In this document: piece after piece, positions 33,659 through 61,938 of the stretch
How the letters are laid out: every line of letters begins with the position of its first letter
Position numbering within the stretch: position 1 is the stretch's first letter
NCBI GenBank assembly: GCA_016699405.1
Contig: CP064972.1
Location: forward strand, 2,696,165 to 2,760,164
Reading direction: 5' to 3'
DNA from: Holophagales bacterium
Lineage (GTDB): Bacteria > Acidobacteriota > Thermoanaerobaculia > Multivoradales > JAGPDF01
DNA: 64,000 nucleotides
The notes under the pieces: generated by a model
Databases searched by the model: none
What the model was told of the DNA's origin: nothing
The model's input: the letters and a program-made list of their open reading frames with translations, nothing else
Position numbers and translations under genes: made by a program

Positions 33659-36367
33659 ATGCGCCCTGTCTGCTCTGCGGTTCTCGCCCTCGCCCTGGCT
33701 GCCGCGCCCGTTGCGGCGTTGGCCAAGATCTCGCCTGCGCTCGAGCGGGTCTTCGCGGACGCCCCCGGCGGCCGCGCCGAGATGCTGGTGGTGATGACCG
33801 AGCAGGCCGACCTTTCGGCGGCGCACGAGCTGTCGAGCAAGCTTGCGAAGGGGCGCTACGTCTACGAGAAGCTCACGGCGACCGCCAAACGCGCCCAGGC
33901 GCCGCTGCTCGCCGAGCTCGAGCGTCGCGGCATCGTCCACCGTTCGTTCTGGGCGGCGAATTTCCTCTGGGTCGAGGGCGACCTCGCGCTGGCGCAGGAG
34001 CTCGCCGCGCGTCCCGACGTGGCGCGCCTCGATACCAATCCGAAGCTGGTGATGGAGCAGCCGGTCGTCGACCTCGCCGAGCAGAACCGCAGCGACGCTC
34101 CGCTCGCGGTCGAATGGAACATCACCAAGGTGAACGCACCCTCGGTCTGGGCCTTGGGCTACACCGGGCAGGGCGCGGTCATCGGCGGACAGGACACCGG
34201 CTACCAGTGGGATCATCCGGCGCTCAAGAGCAAGTACCGCGGCTGGAACGGTGCGAGCGCGGATCACAACTACAACTGGCACGATGCGGTCCATTCCGGC
34301 GGTGGCACCTGCGGCCCAGACTCGGTCGTCCCGTGCGACGACGACCAGCACGGAACTCACACGATGGGCACGATGGTCGGCGACGACGGTGGATCCAACC
34401 AGATCGGCATGGCTCCCGGGGCGCGCTGGATCGGGTGCCGCAACATGAACGTCGGCGTCGGCACCCCGACGAGCTACATCGAGTGCTTCCAGTGGTTCAT
34501 CGCGCCGACGAATCTCGCTGGCCAGAACCCCGACCCCGCCAAGTCCCCCGACGTGATCAACAACTCCTGGGGCTGCCCGACCTCGGAGGGGTGCAGCGCC
34601 GCGAACTTCGGTGTCATGCAGACGGTGGTGGAGAACGTCCGGGCGGCGGGCATTTTCGTGGCGGTCTCGGCCGGCAACGACGGGTCGGCCTGCTCGACAG
34701 TCAACACGCCGGCAGCGATCTATGACGCCGCGTTCTCGGTCGGCTCGACGACCTCGACCGACGCGGTCTCGAGCTTCTCGAGCCGCGGTCCGGTGACGGT
34801 GGACGGCTCGAACCGCATGAAGCCCGACATCGCCGCCCCCGGCTCGAACATCCGCTCGAGCATTCCCGGCAGCTCCTATGCCGGCGGCTGGAGCGGCACC
34901 TCGATGGCCGGACCGCACGTGGCCGGGCTCGTGGGACTGATGGTCTCGGCGGTTCCGGCGGCAGCCGGCGACGTCACCCGCCTCGAAGACCTCATCCGTC
35001 AGTCCGCGGTGCACCCGACCTTCGGCGGGGAGTGCAGCGTCGCGGCAGGGATCTTTCCGAACAACACCTTCGGGGCTGGCCGCATCGACGCACTCGCGGC
35101 GGTGAACCTGCTGCTCTCGCAGGCTGACTTCCAAGTGAACGCGACGCCGGCGAGCCGGACGGTCTGCGCGCCGGCCAGCGCCACGTTCGACATCGCCGTC
35201 GGGCAGTTGGGGAGCTTCGCCGAGCCGGTGACGCTCGCGGCCTCCGGAAATCCGGTCGGCTCGACGGTGGGCTTCGCCGCGAATCCGGTGAGTCCGGGCG
35301 GTGGCACGACGATGAACGTGACCACCGTGGGCGTGGCCGCCGGCAGCTCGACGATCACCGTCTCCGGTACGGCGAGCCCGAGTGGCACCTTGCGTTCCGA
35401 CACGGTCGATCTCGCCGTCTTCACCGGCTCGGCCGCAGCGCCGGCGCTCACCGCGCCGGCGAACGGGGCGATCAACGTCGCACCGCGCCCCGCCTTCTCC
35501 TGGGGCGCTGCTGCCGGGGCGGCCGACTACCTGCTCGAGGTCGACGACAGTGCCGGGTTCGGCAGCCCCGTCTACACCGCGACGGTCGCCGGGACCAGCC
35601 ACACGCCGACCGTCGACCTGCCGTCGAACACCCATCTCTACTGGCGGGTGACCGCCAACAACCCGTGCGGCTCGGCGGTCTCGCCGGCCTTCTCGTTCAC
35701 CACCCAGGCGCTTCCTGGGGATTGCGCCACCGGATCGGTACCCCATCTCGTCTACGACTTCGGGTTCGAGACCGGTCTCGGCGGTTGGGCTTCGAGCGGC
35801 ACCGGCAACACCTGGGCGATCACGACGAGCGCCGCCTACGTCCATGCCGGGACGCAGGCGATGCACGCCACCGACCCGACCGCCGTCGCCGACCAGCGGC
35901 TGGTTTCGCCGGCGCTTGCGCTGCCGGCCGGCGAGAACCCGGTGGTGCTCGTCTACTGGAACTCGCAGTCGTTCGAGAAGTCGACCAGTGGGTGCTACGA
36001 CGGCGGGATTCTCGAGATCTCGACCGACGGTGGCACGTCCTGGATCCAGCTGACGAACGCGACGCTGCTCACCGATCCCTACGACGGCACGGTCTCGACC
36101 TCCTTCTCCAACCCGATCGGGGGAGCCTCGGCCTGGTGCGGCGATCCGCAGGCGTGGACGCGCTCGGTCGTCGACGTGAGCGCCTACGCCGGCCAGACGG
36201 TGCAGTTCCGTTTCCGGATCGGCTCGGACACCTCCTCCGGACGCACCGACGGCTGGAACCTCGACGAGATCAAGGTGCAGAGCTGTGCCCTCGGTGCGGT
36301 CTTCGCCGGCGATTTCGAGAGCGGTTCGATGGCGCAGTGGAGCGCAACCTACCCGGCCGTTCCCTGA
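33659..36367 (+). CDS. Secreted subtilisin-family (S8) serine protease with C-terminal beta-sandwich domains
   Basis: Signal peptide MRPVCSAVLALALAAAPVAALA. Asp/His/Ser triad contexts: VIGGQDTGYQWDHPAL, HGTHTMGTMVG, GTSMAGPHVAG. Inhibitor_I9-like propeptide. C-terminal FN3/MAM-like domains ending in GDFESGSMAQWSATYPAVP. Confidence 0.88.
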   Translation: MRPVCSAVLALALAAAPVAALAKISPALERVFADAPGGRAEMLVVMTEQADLSAAHELSSKLAKGRYVYEKLTATAKRAQAPLLAELERRGIVHRSFWAANFLWVEGDLALAQELAARPDVARLDTNPKLVMEQPVVDLAEQNRSDAPLAVEWNITKVNAPSVWALGYTGQGAVIGGQDTGYQWDHPALKSKYRGWNGASADHNYNWHDAVHSGGGTCGPDSVVPCDDDQHGTHTMGTMVGDDGGSNQIGMAPGARWIGCRNMNVGVGTPTSYIECFQWFIAPTNLAGQNPDPAKSPDVINNSWGCPTSEGCSAANFGVMQTVVENVRAAGIFVAVSAGNDGSACSTVNTPAAIYDAAFSVGSTTSTDAVSSFSSRGPVTVDGSNRMKPDIAAPGSNIRSSIPGSSYAGGWSGTSMAGPHVAGLVGLMVSAVPAAAGDVTRLEDLIRQSAVHPTFGGECSVAAGIFPNNTFGAGRIDALAAVNLLLSQADFQVNATPASRTVCAPASATFDIAVGQLGSFAEPVTLAASGNPVGSTVGFAANPVSPGGGTTMNVTTVGVAAGSSTITVSGTASPSGTLRSDTVDLAVFTGSAAAPALTAPANGAINVAPRPAFSWGAAAGAADYLLEVDDSAGFGSPVYTATVAGTSHTPTVDLPSNTHLYWRVTANNPCGSAVSPAFSFTTQALPGDCATGSVPHLVYDFGFETGLGGWASSGTGNTWAITTSAAYVHAGTQAMHATDPTAVADQRLVSPALALPAGENPVVLVYWNSQSFEKSTSGCYDGGILEISTDGGTSWIQLTNATLLTDPYDGTVSTSFSNPIGGASAWCGDPQAWTRSVVDVSAYAGQTVQFRFRIGSDTSSGRTDGWNLDEIKVQSCALGAVFAGDFESGSMAQWSATYPAVP

Positions 36368-36419
36368 AGTCTTCGCCCGAGAGCGTCACCCCTCAGCGGA
36401 TTTGACCGGGAGATCGGCC

Positions 36420-38489
36420 ATGGAAGAGAAGCGTTCGGAGCCGTTCGTCAGCGCCGCGACCGAGATGCGCGAAGCCACGCCGCGTGCGCTGCTACTCGGC
36501 GTCGCGATGGCCGTCTTCATGGCCGCCGCCAATGCCTATCTCGGTCTGAAGGCCGGCATGACGATCGCCGCGACCTACACCACGGCGGTGATCGGCATGG
36601 CGGTGATCAAGGCGCTCGGCGGGACGATTCTCGAGGAGAACTGCGCGCGCACCGTCGGTTCGATCGGCGGCAACGTCGCGGCGGGAGCGATCTTCACCCT
36701 GCCGGCGTTCTTCATCGCCGGGATCTGGCCGACCTTTTTCACCCCGGCCCACTACGTGGTCTCGACGATCATCCTGGTCGCCGGCGGCCTGCTCGGCATC
36801 ATGTTCGTGACGATCACGCGCCGCGTGCTGGTGAACAACGCCGAGCTGCCCTTCCCGGAGGCGGTGGCGGCCTCGGAGATCCACAAGGCGGGGCAACGAG
36901 GGCAGGGCGGGTCGCGCCACCTTCTCGCCGGGATGGGGATGGGCGCGTTCTTCGCCCTGCTCGCCGAGCTCAAGGTGCTCGCGGCGAAGTGGCAGACCAG
37001 CCTCACGGTCGGCAGGGGGGCGCTCGTGGTGCGCGGGCCGGAGGCGAGCCCGGCGTTTCTCGGCGTGGGTTACATCATCGGGCCGCGCCTCGCCGGGATC
37101 AACTTCAGCGGCGGCGTGCTTGCCTGGGGTCTGCTCGCCCCGGCGATCGCCTTCTTCATGCACTGGCACGACGCGACGCCGGTGGCCAACTGGGCCACCG
37201 AGATCGCGCTCGTCTGGCGCAACACCGTGCGCCTGATCGCCATCGGCGGGATGCTGGTCGGAGCCTTCTACACGCTCTACAAGATGCGAGCGAGCCTCGT
37301 CGAGGGGATCGCTCGCTCGGTCGGCAATCTCACGCGACGTCGCGGCGCGGGCGAGCCGCAGGCGATCCGCACAGATCGCGACATCCCGATCCAGTGGGCG
37401 CTCGTCGGCATCGCCGCGGTGCTTGCGGTGATGGTCTTCGTCTTCCAGTGGTTCGCCGGCAGCCTCCTCGCCGCGACGGTCGCCGCGGCGGTGATGCTGG
37501 TGCTCGGGTTCATCTTCGCCGCCGTCTCCGGCTACCTCGTCGGCATCATCGGCGTGTCGTCGAATCCGACGAGCGGGCTCACCGTCACGGTGCTGATCGC
37601 CGTCGCTTTCCTGATGGTCGTGCTCGGCCTCGAGGGGGCGACGGGGATCGCCGCGGTGCTCGGCGTGGCCGCCTTCACTTGTGTCTCGGTGTCGGTGGCA
37701 GGCGAGATGATGCAGGACCTGAAGGCCGGCCATCTGCTCGGGTGCACCCCCTGGCGGATGCAGGTCGGCGACATCCTCGGCGTCACCGCCGCCTCGCTCG
37801 CCATGTTCCTCGTGCTCTCCGTGCTCCACCTCGGCGACATCAAGAGCGCCGTCGCGCAGAAGCTCGGCGAGCTCGAGAGCGCCGGCGCGGCGAGCGTCGA
37901 GTACGCCGGCGAGAGCTCGGCGCTCGCCCACCGGGCCTACAGCCTCACCGAGGTGCGAGCCCTCGCCCCGGAGTTGCAGAACGAGCTGCTGGCCACCAAC
38001 GCCGGCTTCGGCGGTGCGCGGATCGCCGCGCCGCAGGCCAGCCTGATGGCCGTCGTCTCGCGCAGCATCATGGAGCGCAAGACCGAGTGGATCCTCATCC
38101 TGGTCGGCGTCTTCATGGGGCTCGCGTTCATCTTGATGCAGGTCAAGAGCCCGATGCTGGTGGCGGTGGGAATGTATCTGCCGATCGAGACCTCGTTCGC
38201 CATCTTCGTCGGCGGTCTGTTCAAGGGGATGCTCGACCGGGCAGCGGAGCGCGAGAAGTGGGAGAAGGAGCCGAAGGAGCGCGCCGAGAACGCCGGCACG
38301 CTCCTCGCCTCGGGGCTGATCGCCGGCGAGGCGATCATCGGCATCCTCTTCGCGGCGCTGAAGTTCGCCGAAGTCCGACTGCCCGAGCTGCTGGAGCACC
38401 CGTCCTACCTGACGAGTCTCGTCGGCGTGGCGATCCTGGGGACGATCCTGATCGTCGTGCCGCGCCGGCAGGCGCGCGCCGAGCGATGA
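36420..38489 (+). CDS. OPT-family oligopeptide transporter
   Basis: About 690 aa with 14-16 TM segments. The N-terminus LLLGVAMAVFMAAANAYLGLKAGMTIAATYTTAVIGMAV is typical of the bacterial OPT superfamily. Confidence 0.8.
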   Translation: MEEKRSEPFVSAATEMREATPRALLLGVAMAVFMAAANAYLGLKAGMTIAATYTTAVIGMAVIKALGGTILEENCARTVGSIGGNVAAGAIFTLPAFFIAGIWPTFFTPAHYVVSTIILVAGGLLGIMFVTITRRVLVNNAELPFPEAVAASEIHKAGQRGQGGSRHLLAGMGMGAFFALLAELKVLAAKWQTSLTVGRGALVVRGPEASPAFLGVGYIIGPRLAGINFSGGVLAWGLLAPAIAFFMHWHDATPVANWATEIALVWRNTVRLIAIGGMLVGAFYTLYKMRASLVEGIARSVGNLTRRRGAGEPQAIRTDRDIPIQWALVGIAAVLAVMVFVFQWFAGSLLAATVAAAVMLVLGFIFAAVSGYLVGIIGVSSNPTSGLTVTVLIAVAFLMVVLGLEGATGIAAVLGVAAFTCVSVSVAGEMMQDLKAGHLLGCTPWRMQVGDILGVTAASLAMFLVLSVLHLGDIKSAVAQKLGELESAGAASVEYAGESSALAHRAYSLTEVRALAPELQNELLATNAGFGGARIAAPQASLMAVVSRSIMERKTEWILILVGVFMGLAFILMQVKSPMLVAVGMYLPIETSFAIFVGGLFKGMLDRAAEREKWEKEPKERAENAGTLLASGLIAGEAIIGILFAALKFAEVRLPELLEHPSYLTSLVGVAILGTILIVVPRRQARAER

Positions 38490-38644
38490 CCGCGCAAGCG
38501 GCACCCGAGCGCGCCGGGCGCTCTCGGTCCCCGGACGAAACCCGAGCGAGTGAGCCGACGTAAGGTCGGGAAAGGCCCGACGTGTCGTCGCAGGTCTTGC
38601 TGCGGTCGCTGGACGCCGGAAGGCGATCCGGCAAGGAGGGTGCG

Positions 38645-40030
38645 ATGAGGTTGCGATCCGGAGGGCGGAGTTGGGCCCTGGCACTGCTGTTGTCGGTCGC
38701 TTCGGCCGCCGGGGTCTGGAGTCTCGAGGAAGCACCACGGAACCCGACCTCGCCTGGGGGTGCCGGCGCGCCTGCGGCGGCGACGCCTGGAGCCAGCTCC
38801 ACCGCGTTCGATCCCCAGAAGGCGACCGAGGCCTACCTCGCGCGGATGCCCGCCGCGGAGCGCGCCAAGTCCGACGCCTATTTCGAGGGCGGCTACTGGC
38901 TGCAGCTCTGGGGCTTCCTCTACGGCCTGGCGGTGGCTTGGCTCCTCCTCGGGACGGGGCTCTCGGCGCGACTGCGCGATCTGGCGAACCGGATCACCCG
39001 GAGAAGGTCGCTCGCCGCCTCGCTCTACTTCGCCATGTACCTGCCGTTGGTCTCGCTGCTCTCCTTCCCGTTGACGGTCTACTCGGACTACTTCCGCGAG
39101 CATCGGTACGGCCTCGCGACCCAGAGCTTCGGTCTCTGGCTCGGCGACCAGGCCAAGGAGCTGCTCATCGGCCTGCTGCTGGGCGCTGCGTTCGTGCCGC
39201 TGCTCTACGCCGTGCTCCGCCGCAAGCCGCGCACCTGGGCGCTGTGGGGGGCTCTCCTCGGACTCGGCTTCCTCGTCTTCGGGGCGGTGATCGGGCCGGT
39301 CTTCATCAATCCGCTGTTCAACGAGTACAAGAAGCTCGAGGATCCGAAGGTGCTCGCGCCGATTCTCGCGCTCGCCCGGGCGAACGGCATTCCCGCCCAC
39401 GACGTCTGGGAGATGGACGCCTCGCGGCAGACGACGCGGATCTCGGCCAACGTCAGCGGTCTTCTCGGTACGGAGCGCATCACCCTCAACGACAACCTGC
39501 TCAAGCGCTGCAGCCTGCCCGAGATCGAGTCGGTGATGGCGCACGAGATGGGGCACTATGTTCTCAACCACGTCTACGAGAGCGTCCTCGAGCTCGGCCT
39601 GCTGATCGTCGCCGCCTTCGCCTTCGTGCGCTGGGGCATGGAGAAGGCTTTGGCCCGGTGGGGGGCGGCCTGGCGGCTCGACGGGGTCTCCGACGTGGCG
39701 ACGTTGCCGCTGCTGGTCGCCATCTTCTCGGTCTTCTTCTTCGTTGCGACCCCGGTGACGAACACGATCATCCGCGTCAACGAGGTCGAGGCCGACATCT
39801 TCGGCCTCAACGCGGCCAGACAGCCGGACGGTTTCGCCGAGACGGCGCTCAAGCTCGGCGAGTACCGCAAGCTCGCGCCGTCGCCGCTCGAGGAGATCCT
39901 CTTCTTCGATCATCCGAGCGGCCGGAACCGGATTCTCATGGCGATGACCTGGAAGGCCGAGCACCTCGACGACCCGAAGGTCGCGACCGGCGGGGCTGCC
40001 GCAGGAGCGAATCCGGCGGCGACGCAGTAG
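38645..40030 (+). CDS. M48-family zinc metalloprotease (Ste24/HtpX-like)
   Basis: HEMGH zinc-binding motif, downstream NEVEADIFG (third ligand Glu), and multiple TM helices. Start at MRLRSGGRSW with an AAGGAGGG RBS. Confidence 0.8.
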   Translation: MRLRSGGRSWALALLLSVASAAGVWSLEEAPRNPTSPGGAGAPAAATPGASSTAFDPQKATEAYLARMPAAERAKSDAYFEGGYWLQLWGFLYGLAVAWLLLGTGLSARLRDLANRITRRRSLAASLYFAMYLPLVSLLSFPLTVYSDYFREHRYGLATQSFGLWLGDQAKELLIGLLLGAAFVPLLYAVLRRKPRTWALWGALLGLGFLVFGAVIGPVFINPLFNEYKKLEDPKVLAPILALARANGIPAHDVWEMDASRQTTRISANVSGLLGTERITLNDNLLKRCSLPEIESVMAHEMGHYVLNHVYESVLELGLLIVAAFAFVRWGMEKALARWGAAWRLDGVSDVATLPLLVAIFSVFFFVATPVTNTIIRVNEVEADIFGLNAARQPDGFAETALKLGEYRKLAPSPLEEILFFDHPSGRNRILMAMTWKAEHLDDPKVATGGAAAGANPAATQ

Positions 40031-41566: not shown

Positions 41567-41605
41567 CGACTCCGTTTCGGGCCGGACTCTTCCTTCCAGG
41601 TCGCC

Positions 41606-44065
41606 ATGATTCGACACCTGTGCCGTCTTTCGCTGCCGATCGCTCTTGCGCTCCTGCTGGCGCTCGTCGCTCCGCCGCTCCACGCTGGCGTCGACGTCGC
41701 CGATCCGTTCACCGGTGACGGCCCCTGGATGGTGCGGGCCTTCTTCGTCCCCGACGCCGACCGCCAGGAGGTCGGGCGCCGCTTCGATCACTTCTCGGTG
41801 GACCGCAAGAGCGGCGCGCTGCGTCTCTTCGCGGCCGACGCAAGCGACCTCGAGTGGCTGCGTGCCCGCGGCTACTGGCTCGAGCTCGACGAGGCGACCA
41901 CGGCCGCGATGCGCGAGGCGCAGCGCCGCGCCGCCACGGAGCAGACCCTCGCCGGCATTCCGGGATACTCCTGCTATCGGACGGTCGAGGAGAGCTACGC
42001 CACGGCGGACGCCATCGTCGCCGCCCATCCCCAGCTTGCGTCGATCGTCGACATCGGCGACAGCTGGGAGAAGGTCACCGCCGGCGGCAACCCCGGTTAC
42101 GACCTGCGCGTGCTCCGGCTCACCAACTCGGCCGTGCCGGGGCCGAAGCCGCGCTTTCTCCTGCACGGCGCCATCCACGCTCGCGAGTACACCACCGCCG
42201 AGCTGGCGCTCCGCTTCGCCGAACAGCTCGTCGACGGCTACGGCAGCGACGCCGACGCGACGTGGATCCTCGACCACCACGAGGTCCACCTGCTGCTGCA
42301 GGCCAACCCGGACGGCCGCAAGAAGGCCGAAGCCGGCTCGTCGTGGCGGAAGAACACGAACGAGGCGTACTGCGGCGCGACCTCGACCTCCCGTGGCGCC
42401 GACCTCAACCGGAATTTTCCGTTCCAATGGGGCTGCTGCGGCGGGTCGAGCGGTTACCCCGCTACCTGCGCAACGGATTTCCGAGGCGACTCACCGGCCT
42501 CCGAGCCGGAGGTCCAGGCGATCCGCAACTACCTCCTGGCGATCTTCCCGGATCAGCGCGGTCCGGAGCTGACCGATCCGGCGCCGCCCGACGCCAGCGG
42601 GCTCTACCTCGACCTTCACAGCTTCAGCGAGCTGGTGCTCTGGCCGTGGGGGTTCACCTCGACCGTGGCGCCGAACGGCACGGCGTTCGCCACGCTCGGG
42701 CGCAAGTTCGCGTACTTCAACGGCTACATGCCGGAGCAGTCGATCGGTCTTTACCCCACCGACGGCACGACCGACGATTTCGGCTACGGCGAGCTCGGCG
42801 TGGCCTCCTACGCCTGGGAGCTCGGGACCAACTTCTTCGAAGACTGCGTGACCTTCACCTCGACGATCCTGCCCGACAACCTCGCGGCGCTGCGCTACGC
42901 CGCCAAGGTCGCGCGCACGCCCTACCGCACCCCCGCCGGTCCGGACGCCCTGTCGGTCACGCCGAGTGTGAGCGTGGTGGCGCCCGGCGATCCGCTCGCG
43001 GTCACCGCGACCCTCGACGACACGCGCTATTCGAGCGCCGGCGGCGTCGAGCCGAGCCAGCCGATCGCCCAGGCCGAGCTGACGCTCGACACCCCGCCGT
43101 GGGCGGCCGGAGCGGCGCCGATCGCCATGAGCGCCGTCGACGGGGCGTTCGACGAGACGGTGGAGCCGGCGACGGTGGCGGTTCCCACGGCAGGGATCTC
43201 GGAGGGTCGCCACCTCGCCTTCGTGCGCGGGCGCGACAGCGCCGGCAACTGGGGGGCCGTCTCGGCAACCTACCTCACGGTGATGGATCCGCTGACCGCG
43301 CCGACCGTTTACGGAGTCGTTCGCGACGCGACGAGCGGCTCGCCGCTCGCGGCGACGGTGTCTGTCGGGCCGTTCTCGACGACCTCCGACGCCGGTAGCG
43401 GGGCCTATTCGATTCAGGTGCCGACCGGCACGTACGCGCTCGCCGCCTCGGCGCTCGACCACGCCTCGGCCAACGTGGCGGCGGTCACACTCTCCTCCGG
43501 CGATTCGCGCCTCCAGGACTTCTCGCTGGTGCCGTACACGGCGGCGCTCGCGGACGACGTCGAAGGGGGGAACCTCGGCTGGGCGGCCGCGAGCCCGTGG
43601 GCGATCACCAACCTGCAAGCGCATAGCCCATCGCACTCCTGGACCGATTCCCCGGGGGCTGGCGTCGTCTACGGCAACAACGTCGACACCTCGCTGGTCT
43701 CCGCGATCCAAGACCTCTCGCAGGCGAGCGGCGTCCATGTCTCCTTCTGGCAGCGCTACGAAACCGAGCCGACCTTCGACTTCTGCCACGTCGAAGTCTC
43801 GGGCGACGACGGAGCGACCTGGACCGAGCTGGCGAGCTACGACGGGACGCAGTCGACCTGGACCCAAGTGACGCTCGCCGCGCCGCAGCTCGACGGAAAG
43901 GCTCAGGCGCGGATCCGCTTCCGTCTCTCGACCGACGTCTCGGTACAGCGCGACGGCTGCTACGTCGACGATGTCGTGCTGCGCGCGGCGATGGCCCCGA
44001 TTCTTTCCTTTGCCGACGGCTTCGAGAGCGGCACGCTGTCGAATTGGGATGCTTTCGGACTCTGA
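41606..44065 (+). CDS. Secreted M14 zinc carboxypeptidase with carboxypeptidase-regulatory-like and C-terminal MAM-like domains
   Basis: Signal peptide MIRHLCRLSLPIALALLLALVAPPLHA. Zn ligand and catalytic contexts: HGAIHAREYTT (HxxE), NPDGRKKAE, HSFSELVLWPWG. CarboxypepD_reg-like GVVRDATSGSPLAATVSVG. Ends in FADGFESGTLSNWDAFGL. Confidence 0.85.
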   Translation: MIRHLCRLSLPIALALLLALVAPPLHAGVDVADPFTGDGPWMVRAFFVPDADRQEVGRRFDHFSVDRKSGALRLFAADASDLEWLRARGYWLELDEATTAAMREAQRRAATEQTLAGIPGYSCYRTVEESYATADAIVAAHPQLASIVDIGDSWEKVTAGGNPGYDLRVLRLTNSAVPGPKPRFLLHGAIHAREYTTAELALRFAEQLVDGYGSDADATWILDHHEVHLLLQANPDGRKKAEAGSSWRKNTNEAYCGATSTSRGADLNRNFPFQWGCCGGSSGYPATCATDFRGDSPASEPEVQAIRNYLLAIFPDQRGPELTDPAPPDASGLYLDLHSFSELVLWPWGFTSTVAPNGTAFATLGRKFAYFNGYMPEQSIGLYPTDGTTDDFGYGELGVASYAWELGTNFFEDCVTFTSTILPDNLAALRYAAKVARTPYRTPAGPDALSVTPSVSVVAPGDPLAVTATLDDTRYSSAGGVEPSQPIAQAELTLDTPPWAAGAAPIAMSAVDGAFDETVEPATVAVPTAGISEGRHLAFVRGRDSAGNWGAVSATYLTVMDPLTAPTVYGVVRDATSGSPLAATVSVGPFSTTSDAGSGAYSIQVPTGTYALAASALDHASANVAAVTLSSGDSRLQDFSLVPYTAALADDVEGGNLGWAAASPWAITNLQAHSPSHSWTDSPGAGVVYGNNVDTSLVSAIQDLSQASGVHVSFWQRYETEPTFDFCHVEVSGDDGATWTELASYDGTQSTWTQVTLAAPQLDGKAQARIRFRLSTDVSVQRDGCYVDDVVLRAAMAPILSFADGFESGTLSNWDAFGL

Positions 44066-48340: not shown

Positions 48341-48480
48341 CGGCGGGCCGGCCTCGCGGCGGAGCGCCCGGTCGGGCCGTCCCCCTGCTTCCGGCCGGTC
48401 GAGGATAATCGACCCCGACGCGATTGCCCACACCGTCGCCGGAGGCGGCGCCAGTGTAACGAGAGCCAGGAGAGCCGAGC

Positions 48481-48753
48481 ATGTGCCGGAGCATCAGGAC
48501 CCTCCACAACTTCGCGCCGCCGGCGAGCGAGGAGGAGATCGCCGCCGCGGCGCGCCAGTTCGTGCGCAAGCTCTGCGGCTTCACCCGTCCGTCGCGGGCC
48601 AACGCGGCGGTCTTCGAGCGGGCGGTGGAGGAGATCGCGGGGGCGGCGCGCACGCTGCTCGGCGATCTCGTCACCCAGGCTCCGCCGCGCGACCGCGAGG
48701 TCGAGGCGGCGCGAGCCCGCCTGCGGCGAGCCTCCCGCGCCGTGCGGCCATGA
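48481..48753 (+). CDS. DUF2277-family small protein
   Basis: MCRSIRTLHNFAPPASEEEIAAAARQFVRKLCGFTRPSRANAAVFERAVEEI matches the conserved DUF2277 N-terminus (MCRNIxxLxNFxPPAT..EI). Confidence 0.65.
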   Translation: MCRSIRTLHNFAPPASEEEIAAAARQFVRKLCGFTRPSRANAAVFERAVEEIAGAARTLLGDLVTQAPPRDREVEAARARLRRASRAVRP

Positions 48754-50171
48754 GAGGCAGCGGCGCAGGCCGGGCGGGGTGGTTGCTCGCGCTCGCCGGC
48801 GGCCTGGCGCTCTTCTGGGCGCTCGCGGCGCCGGGCGAGAAGCCGGTGCTCACCGACGACGAGCAGGCCAACGCCCAGGCGGCGATCCACCTGGCGCGCC
48901 ACGGGGTCTTCTCGCACGCTCCGGGCGTGAACGCTCCCGCGCCCGACGCCTTCCGCGAGCCGGGCTACGCGGCGTTCGTCGCGACGGTCTGGCACCTCGC
49001 CGGCAGCGAGGTGCCGATGCGGCCCGCGGGGCTCGCGGCGGGCGACGCGCGGGCGCGCGACGCGGTGCGCCCGGTGCAGCGCGCGCAGCGGCTGCTGCTC
49101 GCCCTCGCCGCGCTCGGCGCGGCGGCGGCGGTGGGGTGGGCGGGAGGCCGGTCCGGTCCGACGGTCGCGGCGGTCGCCGCCTTCGCCCTCGTCGCGCTGA
49201 GCCCGGCGCTCGCGCGCAGCGCCGATCTCTTCGCCAGCGAGGCGTTGGCCGCGCCGCTCGCCACGGCCCTGGCCTGCGGCCTGGCGGCGCTCGTCGAACG
49301 CCCGTCGAACCTCCGCGCGCTCGTCGCCGGCCTCGTGGCGGGCGCGCTGGCGCTGGTCAAGGCGGCCTTCCTGCCGCTCGCCGTGGCCCTGGCTCTGTGC
49401 CTCCCGCTGCTGCTCGGAGGCCACCGGGGGCGACACCGGGTGGCGTTCGCGGGGGTCTTCCTGGCCGCGGCGCTCCTCCTCCCCGGGCTGTGGATCGCGC
49501 GCAACGCCGCCACCCTGGGGCACGCCACGCTCGCCGACCGCGGCGGCGTCGTCCTGCTGACGCGGGCCGAGCTCGGCGTCGACGTCGAGCGCGAGGGGAC
49601 CGGCGCGGCGCTCGCGGTCTGGACGCCCTGGCCGCTCGGCGCCACGGCGGCGGACGGCGAGAGCCGCCTCGAGCGCTGGAGCTGGCGGGGGGAGGGCGGG
49701 GCGGCGAGCCCGTTCGTCCGCGCCATGGCGCGGCGCGACGCGTTGATCCGGGAGACCGGCGATCCGCTCGCCGCCGACGCGCGCCTGCGACGCGAGGCGC
49801 TCGCTGCCCTCGGCGCTGCTCCCGGCCGCTGGCTGCGCGCCACCGTGCCGGTCGCCTGGCGGAGCCTCTTCGCCGAGCGCTCGCCCGCATGGCTCCGCCC
49901 GTTCGACGCCGCGCTGCCGATCGGACTGCTCCTCGCGCTCGGCGCCTTTCTCGCTCTCATCCACGCGCTGCGCGGCGCGGACCGGCCGGCGCTCGCCCTG
50001 CTCCTTCCGGTCACCGCCGCCTACCTCTTCGCCGTTCTCGCCACAGAGGGCCTACCGCGCTTCCAGCAGCCGTCGCTACCGATCCTCTGGGCCACTGTTG
50101 CGGCGACGGTCGATCGGCTGGTCGCGCGCGCGGGCCGGCGGACCGCATCCAAAGACAAGACGTCTGGGTAA
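48750..50171 (+). CDS. Polytopic membrane protein, probable GT-C-type glycosyltransferase (ArnT/PMT-like)
   Basis: The ATG overlaps the DUF2277 stop (ATGA). An N-terminal TM helix is followed by a periplasmic loop (DDEQANAQAAIHLARHGVF, cf. GT39/GT83 DE-loop), then about 10 more TM helices. Confidence 0.55.
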   Translation: MRGSGAGRAGWLLALAGGLALFWALAAPGEKPVLTDDEQANAQAAIHLARHGVFSHAPGVNAPAPDAFREPGYAAFVATVWHLAGSEVPMRPAGLAAGDARARDAVRPVQRAQRLLLALAALGAAAAVGWAGGRSGPTVAAVAAFALVALSPALARSADLFASEALAAPLATALACGLAALVERPSNLRALVAGLVAGALALVKAAFLPLAVALALCLPLLLGGHRGRHRVAFAGVFLAAALLLPGLWIARNAATLGHATLADRGGVVLLTRAELGVDVEREGTGAALAVWTPWPLGATAADGESRLERWSWRGEGGAASPFVRAMARRDALIRETGDPLAADARLRREALAALGAAPGRWLRATVPVAWRSLFAERSPAWLRPFDAALPIGLLLALGAFLALIHALRGADRPALALLLPVTAAYLFAVLATEGLPRFQQPSLPILWATVAATVDRLVARAGRRTASKDKTSG

Positions 50172-53710: not shown

Positions 53711-53723
53711 CGGTGCGCTCCGC

Positions 53724-55741: not shown

Positions 55742-58700
55742 ATGGATCATGCGTCCGCACCGCCGGCGAGGGTTCTCGCCGCCTTTTCACTCGCCTTCCT
55801 TGCCGTCGTCGCGCCGGGATCGCCCGTGGCTCTTGCCGAGGCCGTCCCGTCGGGCTCGACCGCCTTGGCTGCTGGGCCTGCCCCGGAGAGCGAACCGCCG
55901 GCCGGAGCCTCGGGCGAGGCCGTGGCCCTGCGGCAACAGATCACCGACCTGCGCCGGGAGCTCTGGCAGCTCGAGGAGACGCTGGCATTGACGCCGTTCG
56001 AGGTGGGGGAGACGGTGACCGGCGCCGAGTCGCGGCGAGCGGAGATCGGGCGGGTGCTGGAGAGCCTGAGGGCTCGGGTGGGAACGGTTCAAGGAGCCGC
56101 TCCCGACGCCGTGATGGAGGAGCTCCTGCGGGCGAGTGGAGAGAGCGAGTCGTTGCGGGCACGGATCGAGCGGCGGACGGCGCGGCGCAACGCGGTCGGA
56201 CCGCAGTTGCCGTACTCCCCGCAGCGTGAGCCGGGTGATCTCGAGATCGTCCCGACCTCGACGCACACCACCTGCGAGACCGCGCTCGAGCCCGGCTCGA
56301 CCCGTGTGCGGGGGATCGTGCGGCCGGAGGTCTGGTTCCGGGTGCCGGTACCAAGAGCGATGAGGGTGACGTTCCGGTCCGAAGCGCTGGCCGGGGAATT
56401 GGCTCTCTCGTTGCATGATCGCTGCGGAACGGAGCCGCGCTTGGCCTCGGGCGCGCCGCGTCGCTCCGCGTTCCTCACGACGGCCGTCGTGAAGGGTGAC
56501 ATCTGGGTTCGTGTCAAAGGACGGTCGACGACCGATCGTCGGCACGAGACGTTCTCGTTCGAGGTCGTTTTCGCATCGGGAGCGATCTCGGGTCGAGTGA
56601 CCCGCGCCGACGATGGTTCGGGTGTGCAGGTTCGGGTGGTTGCGGTGCCGGTCGACAGCTCGAGCCAGCGTGTCGCTCTCACGACGGAGAATGGCGAGTT
56701 CCTGATCTCCGGCCTCGCGCCCGGGTCGTACCTGCTGTCTCTCCGCGACACCGGCGTCCTGGTTCCGGAGCTGTGGAACGACCATCCCTGCGCCGGCGGA
56801 CCGCCGGTCGGATGTTCGCTGAGCGCCGCGAATCCGGTCGTTGTCAATGACTCTGCGACCACGATGGGCGTCGACTTCCAACTCGAGGTGGGTGGGAGGA
56901 TCGGCGGGCGGGTGTTGCTCCGACCCGAAGCGACGCCACCCACGTCTTCGGCCCTCGTGAAAGTGATGAGCTCGGCGGGGCAACTGGTCGGCTCCGCGGC
57001 GACGGATTCGTTCGGGCGCTATCAACTCTCCGGTCTGCAGGGTGACTACCGCGTGGTGGCTTCGGCTTCCGGCCGGGAGACGCAGATCTTCGATCACGGG
57101 ACCTGCGCCGGGACCTGCATCCCGTCGAGCGGCGCTCCGGTCGTGGTCGGGCCGGGTGTCGACCGAAGCGATGTCGACTTCGACCTGAGCCCCCTCGGTT
57201 CGATTGCCGGCAAGCTCACGAGCACGACGGGTGAGCCGATCGCCAACGGCTACGTCTCCGCGAAGATGATGGGTGATCCGAACAACTCGAGGTACACGAA
57301 CTCGGACGCCAATGGCCGGTACGTGGTCACTCAGTTGCAGCCCGGGAACTATGTGGTCTCGGCGAGTCCCAGCTACTACGAGGCGAAAGTGTGGGGCGGT
57401 GACACCTGCACTTACACGGCCGACTGCTTCACGCAGTGCAACGATGCTTCCGCAACTCCGGTGACCGCGGCGGTCGGTGTGACGACTTCGGGAATCGACT
57501 TCACGCTGCGGCCATTCCCCTCGATCAGCGGCCTGGTGACGAAGGAGGAAGACGGGGCGCCGCTGCCGGGAGTCATCGTACGCAACACCATCCCCGGATT
57601 CTGTCTTTCGACGTGGGACGAGTCGGACGGGGCCGGAACCTACCGACTCGAATCGGCCCAGCCGCGGGAGCACAGGCTCTTTTCCTCCAACGCCCTCGGG
57701 CGCATCGACGAGGTCTACGACGGGTTCTCGTGCGGAATCGATGGCTGCTCGTGGTATTCCGGCCCCTACACGCCGGTGCCAGTCACGCTCGACGGGCCGA
57801 TCGATGGAATCAACTTTGCCCTCTCTCGAGGTGCCTCGATCCAGGGCGTCGTTCGCGACGTTCAGGGGCAAGGAGCAGTTCTCTGTCCGAACGGTGGCGT
57901 TGAGCTCTATTCGGGCACCGGAATGTGGCTCCGGGGAACCTGTCCAGCCGCGGACGGTAGCTATCACTGGGACGGTCTCCCCGCGGGGACCTACTTCGTC
58001 GAGGCCTCGGGCACCGCTTTCGTCGATGAACGGTTTGACGGCGTCCCCTGCGAGGGCGGTTGCGACGGGGGAACCCCGCTCGAGCTCGCCCTCGGCGAGC
58101 AGAGGGGCGGCATCGACTTGACGCTCGACCGCTACGGCCGCATCTTCGGCACCGTACAAGTGCAGGCCGAGCCGAATACGCTCTGTGAGGGACCGACTGC
58201 GGAAGTCGATCTGTGGGACAGCGGCGGGAATCTGCTGCAGACGGTGAACACGGACGGTTTGGGTCGCTATGACCTCAGGGTTCCGACCTCCTTTCCCGTG
58301 CATGTGACGGCACTTGCCTCCCACTGCGAGCGAAGCCTGTACCCGGGCATCAACTGCCCGGGGCAAGTCGGAGTCGATTGCCTTCTTTCGCCGGGGTCTC
58401 GGCTCACGGCGAAGCTGAACGTCGACCTGACAGGGGTCGATTTCACACTGCGACCGGCACCGGGCCTGCGCGGGCGGGTTCTCTCCGATCCCGATGGAGC
58501 TCCGTTGCCCGGTGTCGTCGTCGACCTCTTCGACGCCACCAGCCACGCGCACGTATGGGCCAAGCAGAGCGAAGCCGACGGGAGCTTCCGCATGGACTTC
58601 CTCTGGTCAGGGAGAACGTTCCACCTCGCCACCGACAATGGAGCAGGTGCCGTCGACGAGCTCTGGCAGGACATCCCGTGCCCGAACGGCCCAGCACGGC

Positions 58701-58855
58701 TCGGCCTTTGTGATCTCGGCCTCGCGACGCCGATTCGGCTCCGGGAGTACGAGATCGTCGAAGGCCTCGACTTCGTCCTCTCCCCCTGGCCGGTGTTCAA
58801 GAACGGATTCGAGACCGGGTCGTTTGTCGGCTGGGGTGGGATCAGATCGAACTGA
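55742..58855 (+). CDS. Giant secreted multi-repeat protein (signal peptide, coiled coil, conserved Cys module, ~8 carboxypeptidase-regulatory/Cna-B-like beta-sandwich repeats, C-terminal GFE tag)
   Basis: Signal peptide VLAAFSLAFLAVVAPGSPVALA. Coiled coil LRQQITDLRRELWQLEETLALTP. Module TSTHTTCETALEPGSTRVRGIVRPEVWFRV. Repeats of the GxVxxxxDGAPLPGVxV type. Ends in WPVFKNGFETGSFVGWGGIRSN. GAGGAGGA RBS. Confidence 0.8.
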   Translation: MDHASAPPARVLAAFSLAFLAVVAPGSPVALAEAVPSGSTALAAGPAPESEPPAGASGEAVALRQQITDLRRELWQLEETLALTPFEVGETVTGAESRRAEIGRVLESLRARVGTVQGAAPDAVMEELLRASGESESLRARIERRTARRNAVGPQLPYSPQREPGDLEIVPTSTHTTCETALEPGSTRVRGIVRPEVWFRVPVPRAMRVTFRSEALAGELALSLHDRCGTEPRLASGAPRRSAFLTTAVVKGDIWVRVKGRSTTDRRHETFSFEVVFASGAISGRVTRADDGSGVQVRVVAVPVDSSSQRVALTTENGEFLISGLAPGSYLLSLRDTGVLVPELWNDHPCAGGPPVGCSLSAANPVVVNDSATTMGVDFQLEVGGRIGGRVLLRPEATPPTSSALVKVMSSAGQLVGSAATDSFGRYQLSGLQGDYRVVASASGRETQIFDHGTCAGTCIPSSGAPVVVGPGVDRSDVDFDLSPLGSIAGKLTSTTGEPIANGYVSAKMMGDPNNSRYTNSDANGRYVVTQLQPGNYVVSASPSYYEAKVWGGDTCTYTADCFTQCNDASATPVTAAVGVTTSGIDFTLRPFPSISGLVTKEEDGAPLPGVIVRNTIPGFCLSTWDESDGAGTYRLESAQPREHRLFSSNALGRIDEVYDGFSCGIDGCSWYSGPYTPVPVTLDGPIDGINFALSRGASIQGVVRDVQGQGAVLCPNGGVELYSGTGMWLRGTCPAADGSYHWDGLPAGTYFVEASGTAFVDERFDGVPCEGGCDGGTPLELALGEQRGGIDLTLDRYGRIFGTVQVQAEPNTLCEGPTAEVDLWDSGGNLLQTVNTDGLGRYDLRVPTSFPVHVTALASHCERSLYPGINCPGQVGVDCLLSPGSRLTAKLNVDLTGVDFTLRPAPGLRGRVLSDPDGAPLPGVVVDLFDATSHAHVWAKQSEADGSFRMDFLWSGRTFHLATDNGAGAVDELWQDIPCPNGPARLGLCDLGLATPIRLREYEIVEGLDFVLSPWPVFKNGFETGSFVGWGGIRSN

Positions 58856-58884
58856 GTGCAGACGCGAGCGAGATTCCTCTGGAG

Positions 58885-61800
58885 ATGGACATGAACCCTC
58901 GCCCACACTTCCTGCGACGACTCCTTCGAGTGGTCGTCTGCTGGGCCGGTCTCGTTTCGAGTGCCGGCATGTCCTCGGCCGTGGCCGGACCTGCAGCGCC
59001 GAGCGTGGCCGAGCGCGAGAGCCTGCGTCAGCAAACAACCGAGCTGCGCCGGGAGCTCTGGCACCTCGAGGAGATGCTGGCGCTGACACCGCTCGAGGTG
59101 GGGGAGGCGATCACCGGCGCGGAAGCGCGGCGCGCCGAGATCGAGCGGGCGCTGCGGGGCTTGGCGACTCGCCTCGGAACGAGGTCCGGTATCGCGCCGG
59201 ATGCCGCGAGCGAGGAGCTGCTTCGCGCGCGTGGCGAGCTCGACTCGCTGCAGGCGCGAATCGAGCGGCGGGCGGCGCGGCGAAGCGAGGTCGGACCGCA
59301 GTTGCCGTCCGCTCCGACGCGCGAGCCCGGCGATCTCGAGATCGTCGCCACCTCGACGCACACCACCTGCGAGACCGCGCTCGAGCTCGGCTCGACCCGC
59401 GTCCGCGGGATCGTGCGGCCGGAGGTCTGGTTTCGAGTGAGGGTTCCGAAAGCGACGAACGTGGCGATTCGCGCCGAGGCGCTTGACGAAAGCGTGAGCG
59501 TCACCACCTTCAGCCGCTGCGGAGGAGAAGCACTCGCTTCGTCCGGGTCACCTCTCCAGAACGTACTGTTCACAACTTCAGCCGGGTATGGCGACCTGTG
59601 GATTCGGCTCGCTTCGCGGTCGCAGGGCTCGAGGCGACACAACACCTTCACGATCGATGCGGCGCTCGATGTCGGCTCGATTTCAGGTCGGGTGACGAGA
59701 GCCGACAACGGGGTCGGGGTCTCGACCCAGGTTCAGGCCTATGTCGAGGCCGGCTGGAGCTACCGGACCACCTACTCGAATGAAGATGGTCAGTATTCGA
59801 TTCCAGATTTGCCGCCGGGTTCTTACCGAGTCGTCGTCCCGTACGGGGGCGACCTCGTGGGGGAGCTCTTCGACAATCACCACTGTGCGGGCGGTCCACC
59901 GTTCGGTTGCAGCGTAGCCTCGGGTGACCCGGTCGTAGTGCAGGATTCGACGACGACGCCGGGAATCGATTTCCAACTCGTCGTCGGAGGACACATCGTC
60001 GGGCGAGTGCGGTTGGTCCCGGAAGGGACTCCGCCTGACTCCGCCACCGTGCGGATCCTCACGCCAGGTGGGCAAGACGTGGCGTACGACCTCATCGATC
60101 CGTTTGGTCGCTACGCCATCTCCGGGCTCCAGGGCGAGTACCGTGCCATCGCCGGTGCATCCGGGCGGGAAGGCCAAGTTTACGATCACGTCACTTGTGT
60201 CGGACCTTGCTCGGCTGAGCTCGGAACACCGATCGTCGTCGGTCCGGGAGATGACCGCACGGATGTCGACTTCGACCTGCCTCGGCTCGGAGCGATTGCT
60301 GGCCAGGTTCTCGACTCGTTGGGCAGCCCGATCCCAGGGGCGACTGTCGGCGCCTATGCGGTCAGCACGGGCGGATTCATCGCGTCCGCGACATCGTCAG
60401 CGGATGGTGCCTACCTCATCGAGAGCTTGCCGGCCGGCCTGTACACGGTCACGGCTCGGCCGATGCATCATGAGGCGAAGATCTGGGGAGGCGCAACCTG
60501 CACCTACTCGGAATCGTGCTTTCTCGAGTGTTCCGCAGGGACGCCCGTGTCGGTGTCTCCGCTCCTGACGACGGCGGACGTGGACTTCTCGCTGCGACCG
60601 TTCCAGTCGATCGGAGGCTCGGTTCGCCGAGAAGAGAACGGAGCGCCGCTCGCTGGCGTCATCGTCGCCAACGGGAATGGCTTCTACTGCCAGAGCACGT
60701 GGGGCGAATCGAATGTCGCGGGAGAGTATCGACTGGAGGCGGTGCCCCCGCAGGGGCATCGTTTGCGCACTTCGAACTCGCTCGGCCGCGTCGACGAGGT
60801 GTACGACGGATTCAACTGCGGCCCGAACGGCTGCAGCTCGACCGGGCTGCCGTTTACTTCCGTCCCTGTGAACCTCGACGCTCCCACGGAGGGAATCGAT
60901 TTCTCGCTGGCCCTCGGAGCCTCGATTCATGGCTTCGTCCGCGATTCTCAGGGGCAGGGCGTTTCGGTCTGTGGTCTCGGCGGAGCAGTCCGGCTGCTGT
61001 GGAACGGCGGCGCGCCCCTCGACGACACCTGCAGTGGAGCAGACGGGGCCTTCACCTTCGACACGCTTGCCGCGGGAAGTTACCTCGTCGAAGTCCATGC
61101 GCCCAGCTACAACAGCGAACGGTGGGACAATGTGCCGTGTCAGGCATTCTGTACGGGCGGAACTCCCATCTCCATCGCCCAAGGGGAAGAGCGACACGGC
61201 ATCGACGTTGCTCTCGATCACGCGGGATGGATTCGCGGCACGGCTCTCTCCGGTGACTCGGCGCGACGTTGCTGGTCCAGTGCTTCCATCGCGGCGATGG
61301 ACGCAGGAGGGGCCGTCGTTGCTAGTGGCTACGCTCGCGACGACGGGAGCTTCTTGCTCACCGTGCCGAGCGCGGCTCCGGTTTACGTAACGGCCACAGC
61401 GGGCGGCTGTGAGCGCAGTCTCTTCCCGGGTCTGAACTGTCCCGGCCAGATCGGTGTCGACTGTCTCCTCGCTAGCGGCACGCCGATCTCGGTCGGCTTG
61501 AACCAGGTGGCGGAGAATGTCAACTTCTCACTGCGAGCGGCGCCGAGTCTGAGGGGGCGAGTGCTCCAAGGCCCGGATGGACGACCTGCGCCGGGGGTCG
61601 TAGTCGACGCCTTCCTTGCAGCCGACCACACGAGCGCCGGCTCCGTTCAGTCTGGAGCAGACGGAAGCTACCTGCTCTTGGCCGGCGCTCCGGGAACGGG
61701 CCTCCTGGTCGCGACCGACAACGGCGTCGGCGCCGTCGACGAGCTCTGGCAGAACGTACCCTGTCCGAACGGTCCCGCCTGGCTCGGCCTCTGTGACCTC

Positions 61801-61938
61801 AATCTCGCGACGCCGATTCCGCTGCGGGAGTACGAGGTCGTCACCGGCATCGACTTCGTCCTCTCCGGCTGGCCGGTGTTCAAGAACGGGTTCGAGAACG
61901 GGTCGCTCGTCGGGTGGGGCGGGAGCGTCTCGAATTGA
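58885..61938 (+). CDS. Paralog of the preceding giant secreted multi-repeat protein
   Basis: Same architecture. About 70-80% identity over the N-terminal 180 aa (LRQQTTELRRELWHLEEMLALTP...TSTHTTCETALELGSTRVRGIVRPEVWFRV) and over the C-terminus (WPVFKNGFENGSLVGWGGSVSN). Confidence 0.8.
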   Translation: MDMNPRPHFLRRLLRVVVCWAGLVSSAGMSSAVAGPAAPSVAERESLRQQTTELRRELWHLEEMLALTPLEVGEAITGAEARRAEIERALRGLATRLGTRSGIAPDAASEELLRARGELDSLQARIERRAARRSEVGPQLPSAPTREPGDLEIVATSTHTTCETALELGSTRVRGIVRPEVWFRVRVPKATNVAIRAEALDESVSVTTFSRCGGEALASSGSPLQNVLFTTSAGYGDLWIRLASRSQGSRRHNTFTIDAALDVGSISGRVTRADNGVGVSTQVQAYVEAGWSYRTTYSNEDGQYSIPDLPPGSYRVVVPYGGDLVGELFDNHHCAGGPPFGCSVASGDPVVVQDSTTTPGIDFQLVVGGHIVGRVRLVPEGTPPDSATVRILTPGGQDVAYDLIDPFGRYAISGLQGEYRAIAGASGREGQVYDHVTCVGPCSAELGTPIVVGPGDDRTDVDFDLPRLGAIAGQVLDSLGSPIPGATVGAYAVSTGGFIASATSSADGAYLIESLPAGLYTVTARPMHHEAKIWGGATCTYSESCFLECSAGTPVSVSPLLTTADVDFSLRPFQSIGGSVRREENGAPLAGVIVANGNGFYCQSTWGESNVAGEYRLEAVPPQGHRLRTSNSLGRVDEVYDGFNCGPNGCSSTGLPFTSVPVNLDAPTEGIDFSLALGASIHGFVRDSQGQGVSVCGLGGAVRLLWNGGAPLDDTCSGADGAFTFDTLAAGSYLVEVHAPSYNSERWDNVPCQAFCTGGTPISIAQGEERHGIDVALDHAGWIRGTALSGDSARRCWSSASIAAMDAGGAVVASGYARDDGSFLLTVPSAAPVYVTATAGGCERSLFPGLNCPGQIGVDCLLASGTPISVGLNQVAENVNFSLRAAPSLRGRVLQGPDGRPAPGVVVDAFLAADHTSAGSVQSGADGSYLLLAGAPGTGLLVATDNGVGAVDELWQNVPCPNGPAWLGLCDLNLATPIPLREYEVVTGIDFVLSGWPVFKNGFENGSLVGWGGSVSN

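Follow-up and report, generated by a model that had tools for sequence, protein, structure and literature searches.

Short terminal tags on many unrelated exoproteins have repeatedly led to sorting machineries, among them sortase, exosortase, rhombosortase, the type IX secretion system (T9SS) and myxosortase. The T9SS C-terminal domain (CTD) folds into a beta-sandwich of some 70-100 residues, and dockerins are duplicated calcium-binding modules of about 60-70 residues. The sorting-signal literature found dealt only with tripartite signals containing a transmembrane (TM) helix. One such paper describes MYXO-CTERM as tripartite in architecture with dozens of carriers per genome (PMC11980579). 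The present analysis concerns 64,000 nucleotides from a Holophagales bacterium (GenBank assembly GCA_016699405.1, contig CP064972.1, positions 2,696,165 to 2,760,164), referred to as the window. Five proteins encoded in the window end in a common tag of about 19 residues. The tag has no TM helix and is put forward here, tentatively, as a docking or localisation peptide of exported proteins.

The initial annotation of the window had described five secreted proteins sharing a motif at their extreme C-termini, and the translations agreed with this description. A six-frame regular expression scan of the window with [GD]FE.G.{4}W gave exactly five matches. All were near the C-terminal ends of open reading frames (ORFs) of about 800 to 1,200 codons, 5-8 residues from the stop. 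The number of matches expected by chance was 0.025 on average, and 0.005 for terminal matches, in 200 second-order Markov simulations of the window. The five copies are listed below, some with their scores against a hidden Markov model (HMM) of the tag.

36299-36364, plus strand: tag copy 1, VFAGDFESGSMAQWSATYPAVP, of the S8 protease; divergent with G and D swapped, 8 residues after W, stop codon at 36365-36367, 19.0 bits
44006-44062, plus strand: tag copy 2, SFADGFESGTLSNWDAFGL, of the M14 carboxypeptidase; stop codon at 44063-44065, 19.3 bits
47395-47451, plus strand: tag copy 3, LFFDGFEWGGVAAWGPALP, of the beta-helix protein; W plus 5 residues with a final P, the canonical length, 9.0 bits
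58793-58852, plus strand: tag copy 4, VFKNGFETGSFVGWGGIRSN, of large repeat protein 1; found by the regular expression scan and the tag HMM
61876-61935, plus strand: tag copy 5, VFKNGFENGSLVGWGGSVSN, of large repeat protein 2; found by the regular expression scan

The window tags are divergent, scoring 9-19 bits against the tag HMM compared with 30-45 bits for canonical tags in other genomes. A tail identical to copy 2 was present in a fragment from a public protein collection (P0008), and the tail of copy 4 was kept in homologous fragments from other samples (P0001, P0012, P0033 and P0066). Identity between the two large repeat proteins is 53% over their whole length and 79% in the tail, which lies at the 88th percentile for identity among 19-residue windows. 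Codon choice varied among the window copies (Gly GGC/GGT/GGA/GGG, Phe TTC/TTT, Ser AGC/TCG) and the DNA 3' of the copies was unrelated. The copies therefore resemble one another as protein rather than as DNA, and a DNA repeat or mobile element was rejected as the origin of the tails. Signal-peptide-like N-termini were read directly from the translations of all five carriers, as the initial annotation had proposed.

A degenerate DNA pattern encoding F-x-[DN]-G-F-E-x-G-[ST]-x3-W, in which several positions are fixed, was run against the GTDB species genomes. At least 120 loci were obtained. A match was classed as terminal when the ORF ended 0-12 residues after W, and taxon labels were used as in the records. 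Among the matches listed there were 124 in total, of which 76 were terminal, divided as follows.

Acidobacteriota metagenome-assembled genomes (MAGs; Thermoanaerobaculia/-ales, Holophagae, Sulfomarinibacteraceae or unclassified): 70 terminal, 11 internal
"Uncultured bacterium" MAGs: 4 terminal, 2 internal
All other phyla: 2 terminal, 35 internal

Both terminal matches from other phyla were on very short ORFs. Outside Acidobacteriota, among the matches listed, the motif was almost always internal and headed a jelly-roll domain of the MAM, CBM or ConA-like kind. The DNA pattern also matched a conserved internal segment, 'KLS.DRR.ITF.DGFEAGTFK.WGTRDLHFYQLKQIKRVRVVRRADGYY', in multi-copy cyanobacterial ORFs (L007, L021, L026, L036, L037, L051, L054 and L090). 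This segment probably belongs to a mobile-element protein and is unrelated to the tag.

The tag consensus was [LIV]-F-[AR]-D-G-F-E-S-G-[ST]-T-x-A-W-S-x-x-x-P-COOH, about 19 residues, with a looser form having x at position 3 and [STDN] at position 10. No conservation was seen upstream of the tag when the terminal matches were aligned. The modal form was W plus 5 residues (44/76 terminal matches listed), and the last residue was Pro in 48 and Phe in 3 of the same 76. The 0-12 residues after W were polar or small. The initial annotation was thus correct that no TM helix follows the motif, and a basic tail was also absent.

The initial annotation had also considered that the motif might be the start of a known domain, such as MAM, truncated by assembly in each case. 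The tag does match the start of MAM/CBM/ConA-like domains; truncation was not found. The stop codons after the window tags are real TGA codons. The next genes begin about 60 nt past 36367 (OPT transporter) and past 44065 (amidase), so a lost downstream domain has no room. In 68 tagged ORFs the stops were TGA in 43, TAG in 22 and TAA in 3. Because all three stop codons are used and genes follow directly, both assembly truncation (or a lost downstream domain) and TGA recoding or readthrough were excluded.

The tag HMM recovered 11-14 further tagged ORFs, missed by the seed pattern, in about 0.59 Mb of flanking DNA of the same 8 kb loci. The tag therefore appears to be carried by dozens or more proteins per genome, a rough figure which clustering of tagged genes may bias. 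Matches to 59 Pfam families were found in 66 tagged ORFs, including FG-GAP, M28, S8, BNR, beta-helix, Kelch, reprolysin, M20, DUF1501 and Calx-beta. A crude heuristic found a signal-peptide-like segment in 49/54 complete tagged ORFs. The carriers had initially been called otherwise unrelated. This is true of the dozens of unrelated exported families across genomes; within the window the two large proteins are paralogous and the S8 and M14 proteins share a jelly-roll.

A profile of the window tails gave 127 matches at E <= 1e-3 against 1.84 billion representative proteins. Matches with a single stretch were nearly all at the extreme C-terminus. Those with several stretches were internal, with the motif heading each repeated domain at periods of about 137, 190, 220 or 290 residues. 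Short tail alignments searched against a word-indexed protein database returned 15 and 43 candidates only. The tag had been presented as novel, and no model for it was found in Pfam or NCBIfam (none at E <= 0.1 for the window tails, none at E <= 10 in NCBIfam for canonical tails). String searches of the open literature found no description of the motif, the FANGFE-type string being masked by an unrelated word.

The counterpart of the tag is the beta1-turn-beta2 start of MAM, CBM4_9/CBM22 and ConA-like jelly-rolls (e.g., PDB 4xup and the InhA-like MAM PF20773). These open with h-F-x-D-G-F-E-x-G-x-h-x-x-W, a pattern which the tag follows with its consensus shifted at positions 10 and 14, from Leu/Phe and Thr in the domain to Thr and Ser in the tag. 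Both CBM22 modules of 4xup (CBM22-1 and CBM22-2) open with FE.G...W, a weak match (E = 4.6). An HMM of 190 positions was built from 32 internal motif copies with 160-200 residues after the motif. It aligned at positions 1-187 in ORFs of Actinobacteria, Chloroflexi and archaea, but only at positions 1-17 in tagged acidobacterial ORFs, which then stop. About 170 residues of the domain are absent, and the tagged ORFs do not have the complete beta-sandwich of about 140-190 residues after the FE.G...W opening. A MAM HMM search of the loci gave nothing new in the way of further or beta1-less jelly-rolls.

Position 10 was hydrophobic in 150/160 domain copies compared with 45/132 tags, in which Thr predominates (Fisher p = 5e-29, kinship ignored). 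Position 14 was Ser in 79% of tags and 33% of domain copies, again with kinship ignored. The window tags keep a hydrophobic residue at position 10. The conserved x3-Pro-COOH ending is specific to the tag as compared with the jelly-roll domain. As judged from sequence, the tag has its own selective signature and does more than repeat the domain strand. In the preferred reading its sequence stems from, or imitates, the beginning (beta1-turn-beta2) of a jelly-roll of the MAM/CBM type.

The last 219 residues of the S8 protein were modelled using AlphaFold2 with a 66-sequence alignment. The predicted local distance difference test (pLDDT) score was 95-99 in the jelly-roll. It was 81 at residues 191-200 and fell to 57 and then 54 across residues 201-219, in which no beta structure was present. 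The jelly-roll has a tag-like segment of its own, VYDFGFETGLGGW, which in the model forms the end of beta1, the turn and the start of beta2. The tag is predicted to be unpacked and not part of the preceding fold. Foldseek matched the last domain of the S8 protein to MAM/CBM jelly-rolls including the InhA2 MAM-like domain (4yu5), CBM22 (4xup) and the meprin and neuropilin MAM domains.

Comparison of 119 homologues of this last S8 domain showed varied modules after the conserved '...VQSC' end of the jelly-roll. These were the present tag, a motif plus TM helix plus Arg cluster, a dockerin-like repeat sequence (by eye) and further domains. The motif, TM and Arg versions, several labelled Anaerolineae, are classical tripartite sorting signals. 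Named relatives of the domain include Thermoanaerobaculia, Holophagae/Holophagales and Acidobacteriota, and also Anaerolineae/Chloroflexota, Tahibacter, Dokdonella, Xanthomonadales and Methylococcales. In some homologues '...VQSC' is followed by short tails, '...[LI]F.[ND]GFE' plus 0-6 residues. Genuine stops end these tails in Dokdonella ('...LIFANDFEM', L121:1-605) and in a Lysobacterales MAG ('...LIFANGFE', L113:1-720). The short-tail proteins are MAM-domain and DUF11-like proteins of Xanthomonadales/Lysobacterales (Dokdonella, Tahibacter; P0156, P0168, P0170, P0181, P0191, P0206, P0210 and P0223). A tail of the '...LIFANGFE' type may represent the tag in a minimal form, here in bacteria that can be cultured.

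The tag was also found away from the C-terminus. The window beta-helix protein is homologous to a protein of a Thermoanaerobaculia MAG (L044:3264-4994, minus strand; 33% identity, E 2e-52, residues 59-507 against 130-576). The L044 protein ends where the tag of the window protein begins and has a tag directly after its signal peptide instead. BLASTP paired the two tags at E = 0.23, which is not significant alone. A signal peptide followed at once by the tag was also seen in L071:4587-7442 (plus strand), L042:3-1448 (minus strand) and L034:5858-6784 (minus strand). No jelly-roll was detected after the N-terminal tag in L071 and L042. Tandem C-terminal tags were found in four metagenomic proteins (P0016, P0050, P0056 and P0090), e.g., '...WASSVPDRIFADGFESGDVSRWGAP', and the inner copy retains the x3-Pro ending. 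The N-terminal and tandem occurrences favour docking over a signal that requires a free C-terminus. The initial proposal of a C-terminal sorting tag is therefore kept in part: S8-domain orthologues have anchoring modules at the exact position of the tag, but L044 and three more Acidobacteriota proteins show that the tag is not obligatorily C-terminal.

The described systems share some features with the tag and differ in others. Like the tripartite signals (LPXTG/sortase, PEP-CTERM/exosortase, GlyGly-CTERM/rhombosortase, MYXO-CTERM/myxosortase and IPTL-CTERM), it is a short C-terminal signature on many unrelated exported proteins of one lineage, and the S8-domain orthologues carry motif, TM helix and Arg cluster at exactly its position. 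It differs in lacking a TM helix after the motif and an Arg/Lys cluster at the extreme C-terminus, and in that it can also begin the mature protein (L044). NCBIfam gave no match for it even at E <= 10, and neither the window nor the flanks of some 80 tagged loci (stretches of 8-20 kb) showed a sortase-like cognate membrane enzyme. One Thermoanaerobaculia ORF of 485 aa (L034, minus strand, reverse-complement coordinate 6132) ends in '...PLTVPTLSSWGLLALALAMAALAVLLLRRRRHA', by eye a motif, TM and Arg signal that presumably resembles IPTL-CTERM. This ending indicates that tripartite signals coexist with the new tag in Thermoanaerobaculia.

The T9SS CTD (Por_Secre_tail, TIGR04183 / PF18962) is likewise a soluble C-terminal signal without a TM helix, found on many secreted hydrolases and adhesins in one phylum-level lineage. 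The tag differs in host lineage, in being predicted unstructured, in having no Pfam or NCBIfam match and in length; at about 19 residues it is far shorter than the CTD, as the initial annotation had pointed out. Dockerins, the partners of cohesins, are also small non-catalytic terminal modules at either end of diverse exoenzymes, and Anaerolineae-type orthologues carry the dockerin-like repeat (by eye) in the tag position. However, the tag has no sequence similarity or Pfam match to dockerins, and its length and sequence are incompatible with them. We know of no cohesin-like partner for the tag. The donor-strand complementation of chaperone-usher pili is alike in concept only, as a detached terminal strand completing a fold on another polypeptide; the fold there is Ig-like, and no strand-deficient receptor was found here in the window and locus flanks. 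The outer-membrane beta-signal is the C-terminal strand of a barrel with an aromatic end, usually Phe, whereas the tagged proteins are soluble and multidomain and end in Pro in 48 of the 76 tags. The element is a short terminal tag of a known sort, common to many exoproteins of a lineage, with a probably new mechanism.

The preferred reading, with a probability of about 0.5, is that the tag acts autonomously as a terminal peptide for docking or localisation and is recognised in trans. Carriers would be exported by Sec via their N-terminal signal peptides. In the mature protein the tag would remain flexible and exposed at one end, in most cases the C-terminus and now and then the new N-terminus. 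A lineage-specific partner would bind it in trans and so retain or position the protein at the cell envelope or surface. The tag would work as a very small dockerin rather than as a sortase-type signal, and the conserved C-terminal Pro may guard the exposed end against carboxypeptidases. A narrower version, prompted by the homology to beta1-beta2, is that the tag is a detached beta1-beta2 hairpin. It would complete, or add to the edge of, a strand-deficient envelope receptor, a split-domain form of donor-strand docking used by on the order of 100 different exoproteins per cell at either terminus. The short '...LIFANGFE' tails of Lysobacterales may be the smallest form of such docking. This version is speculative and rather unlikely.

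Several observations weigh against docking in trans. The initial annotation had suggested a dedicated system for processing, attachment or translocation, which gained no support: no partner, receptor, processing enzyme or translocon was found in the window or the locus flanks. Machinery unlinked to the tagged genes is typical of known sorting systems too. Extreme C-terminal placement predominates among the listed Acidobacteriota matches (70/81), the W+5 length is fixed and the tag ends in Pro, all of which could reflect a processing or secretion machine that recognises the free carboxylate. No more than four or five N-terminal cases are at hand, and in L034 a real ConA-like domain may follow. 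The window tags fit the lineage consensus poorly, and the taxon counts are of matches listed under a pattern that fixes several positions, with the relatedness of the genomes ignored. The polar Thr at position 10 weakens the strand-complementation version, as it speaks against insertion into the core of a canonical jelly-roll.

The same extreme C-terminal placement, with its fixed length after W and its Pro end, would be expected of a true C-terminal secretion or processing signal. In this case a dedicated periplasmic or outer-membrane machine would read the tag together with the free C-terminus and translocate the protein and/or cleave and transfer it, as the T9SS CTD is handled by PorU/PorV. 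The tag occupies the position of tripartite signals in orthologues, its carriers are dozens of unrelated exoproteins, many of them hydrolases, and the AlphaFold2 model predicts it to be flexible and unpacked. A signal requiring a free C-terminus should not tolerate N-terminal, internal or tandem copies, and such copies exist, including the N-terminal tag on a homologous passenger (L044). With no candidate machine in the regions searched, a secretion signal is considered unlikely. That no partner gene was evident among the neighbours of the tagged loci would also suit a self-sufficient sticky peptide, an aromatic and acidic hairpin (F, F, W, D, E) that binds Ca2+, lipopolysaccharide, exopolysaccharide or cell-wall glycan and holds exoenzymes in a matrix without a protein partner. 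Such a peptide could work at either terminus and in tandem, and carbohydrate-binding jelly-rolls (e.g., CBM22 in PDB 4xup) open with this conserved motif. However, the first strand of CBMs has a structural role and the ligand site is elsewhere. A 19-residue peptide predicted to be unstructured would be a poor candidate for a specific glycan binder, and nine positions are so tightly conserved among unrelated carriers as to suggest a protein interface that is stereospecific. Direct binding of this kind is judged improbable.

The tag could also have no sorting role, being either a remnant or linker (the first strand left after loss of a C-terminal jelly-roll) or a cis-acting cap that stabilises or protects the protein end. 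Its sequence identity with the first ~17 positions of the 190-residue domain model, the jelly-roll immediately upstream in the S8 and M14 proteins and the truncated-looking '...LIFANGFE' tails before stops in Lysobacterales are in keeping with this. Independent decay, however, could not give the same register, W+5 and Pro end in dozens of unrelated families, and the tag consensus is distinct from the domain strand. The tag also follows beta-helix, FG-GAP, Kelch and peptidase domains without a jelly-roll, is unpacked on the preceding domain in the AlphaFold2 model and is among the better-conserved segments of the large-repeat paralogues (79% identity, 88th percentile). A remnant or cap is very improbable. 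Docking in trans, at the odds given, is the reading retained.

The five carrier genes of the window are as follows.

33659-36367, plus strand: subtilase (S8) gene; signal peptide, Peptidase_S8, MAM / choice-of-anchor-J jelly-roll (~35708-36292), then the tag
41597-44065, plus strand: M14 carboxypeptidase gene; signal peptide, Peptidase_M14, CarboxypepD_reg, InhA-like MAM (~43673-43990), then the tag
45865-47454, plus strand: right-handed beta-helix protein gene; GTG start, Arg-rich signal peptide, PF13229 Beta_helix, then the tag
55742-58855, plus strand: large repeat protein 1; signal peptide, coiled-coil-like N-terminal region, at least 6 CarboxypepD_reg/SdrD_B-type repeats, then the tag
58885-61938, plus strand: large repeat protein 2, a paralogue of large repeat protein 1; CarboxypepD_reg repeats, then the tag

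The S8 protein is also present in the Logan assembly of SRR11674038. The real start of the M14 carboxypeptidase gene is 41597. A MAM / choice-of-anchor-J jelly-roll directly before the tag is common to the S8 and M14 proteins. A genome scan returned no relatives of the large repeat protein, and no record was found for the product of large repeat protein 2 under either start codon tried. The tagged S8 gene is directly followed by genes for an oligopeptide transporter (OPT) and a membrane peptidase of the Ste24-like M48 (CAAX-protease) type (36285-40030, plus strand). This arrangement did not recur near tagged genes elsewhere, and no link to the tag is claimed.

The window has a GC content of about 71%, and the genes around the carriers are ordinary chromosomal genes (ffh, pyruvate kinase, rimM, L19, PfaA-like synthase, ACC-like carboxylase and AdoHcy hydrolase). 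In the region 15335-29271 (minus strand), the PfaA-like multidomain synthase has about 3,000 residues with the order KS-AT-ACP x3-KR-DH. It adjoins a protein that resembles acetyl-CoA carboxylase and carries biotin carboxylase, BCCP, ACC_central and carboxyltransferase on a single chain of some 1,850 residues. An ORF with a high GC content at third codon positions (48336-50171, plus strand) encodes a polytopic membrane protein with no Pfam match at E <= 0.01 and, by eye, a likeness to GT-C/ArnT-type glycosyltransferases (putative). An ORF of 753 codons (4419-6677, minus strand) has no Pfam match and no tag, and its repeat region is homologous to the tagged L009 and L101 proteins. At its end an unannotated domain of roughly 100 residues ('...NLELLVKVLDG...NG.FW.YAAGLT...') occurs twice, which is another choice-of-anchor-like swap.

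When 863 ORFs of the window and the tag-bearing loci were clustered all against all, the only recurrent neighbours were regulators, namely ECF sigma factors accompanied by Ser/Thr kinases, sigma-54 activators and SpoIIE phosphatases. Genes for ECF sigma factors (PF07638) adjoin tagged genes in L098:5416-7977, L100, L027, L071 and L091, often together with a gene for a TPR Ser/Thr kinase. The tagged gene in L098 and L100 encodes an FG-GAP protein, and ECF/kinase pairs recur in 5-8 loci. The pairs may reflect regulation or simply large gene families. In a related organism (L122:1657-5472) a multihaem cytochrome gene and a gene for an MtrB/PioB-type outer-membrane barrel lie within 10 kb of two tagged genes. 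Cys was not enriched just upstream of the tag (15/71 observed, 16.5% expected), and a disulfide-forming Cys at this site was ruled out on that basis.

The lineage which carries the tag is a widespread and almost uncultured group of Acidobacteriota (Thermoanaerobaculia-type). An HMM of the tag would offer a cheap predictor of surface and secreted proteins in Thermoanaerobaculia metagenomes and would correct annotations that ignore the tail. Hairpin docking, if true, would need only about 19 residues and would be unrelated to the sortase-type, T9SS and cohesin-dockerin systems. If a partner exists it could yield a very small natural tag-and-receptor pair, and it would define how proteases, glycan-binding proteins and adhesins are displayed in these bacteria.

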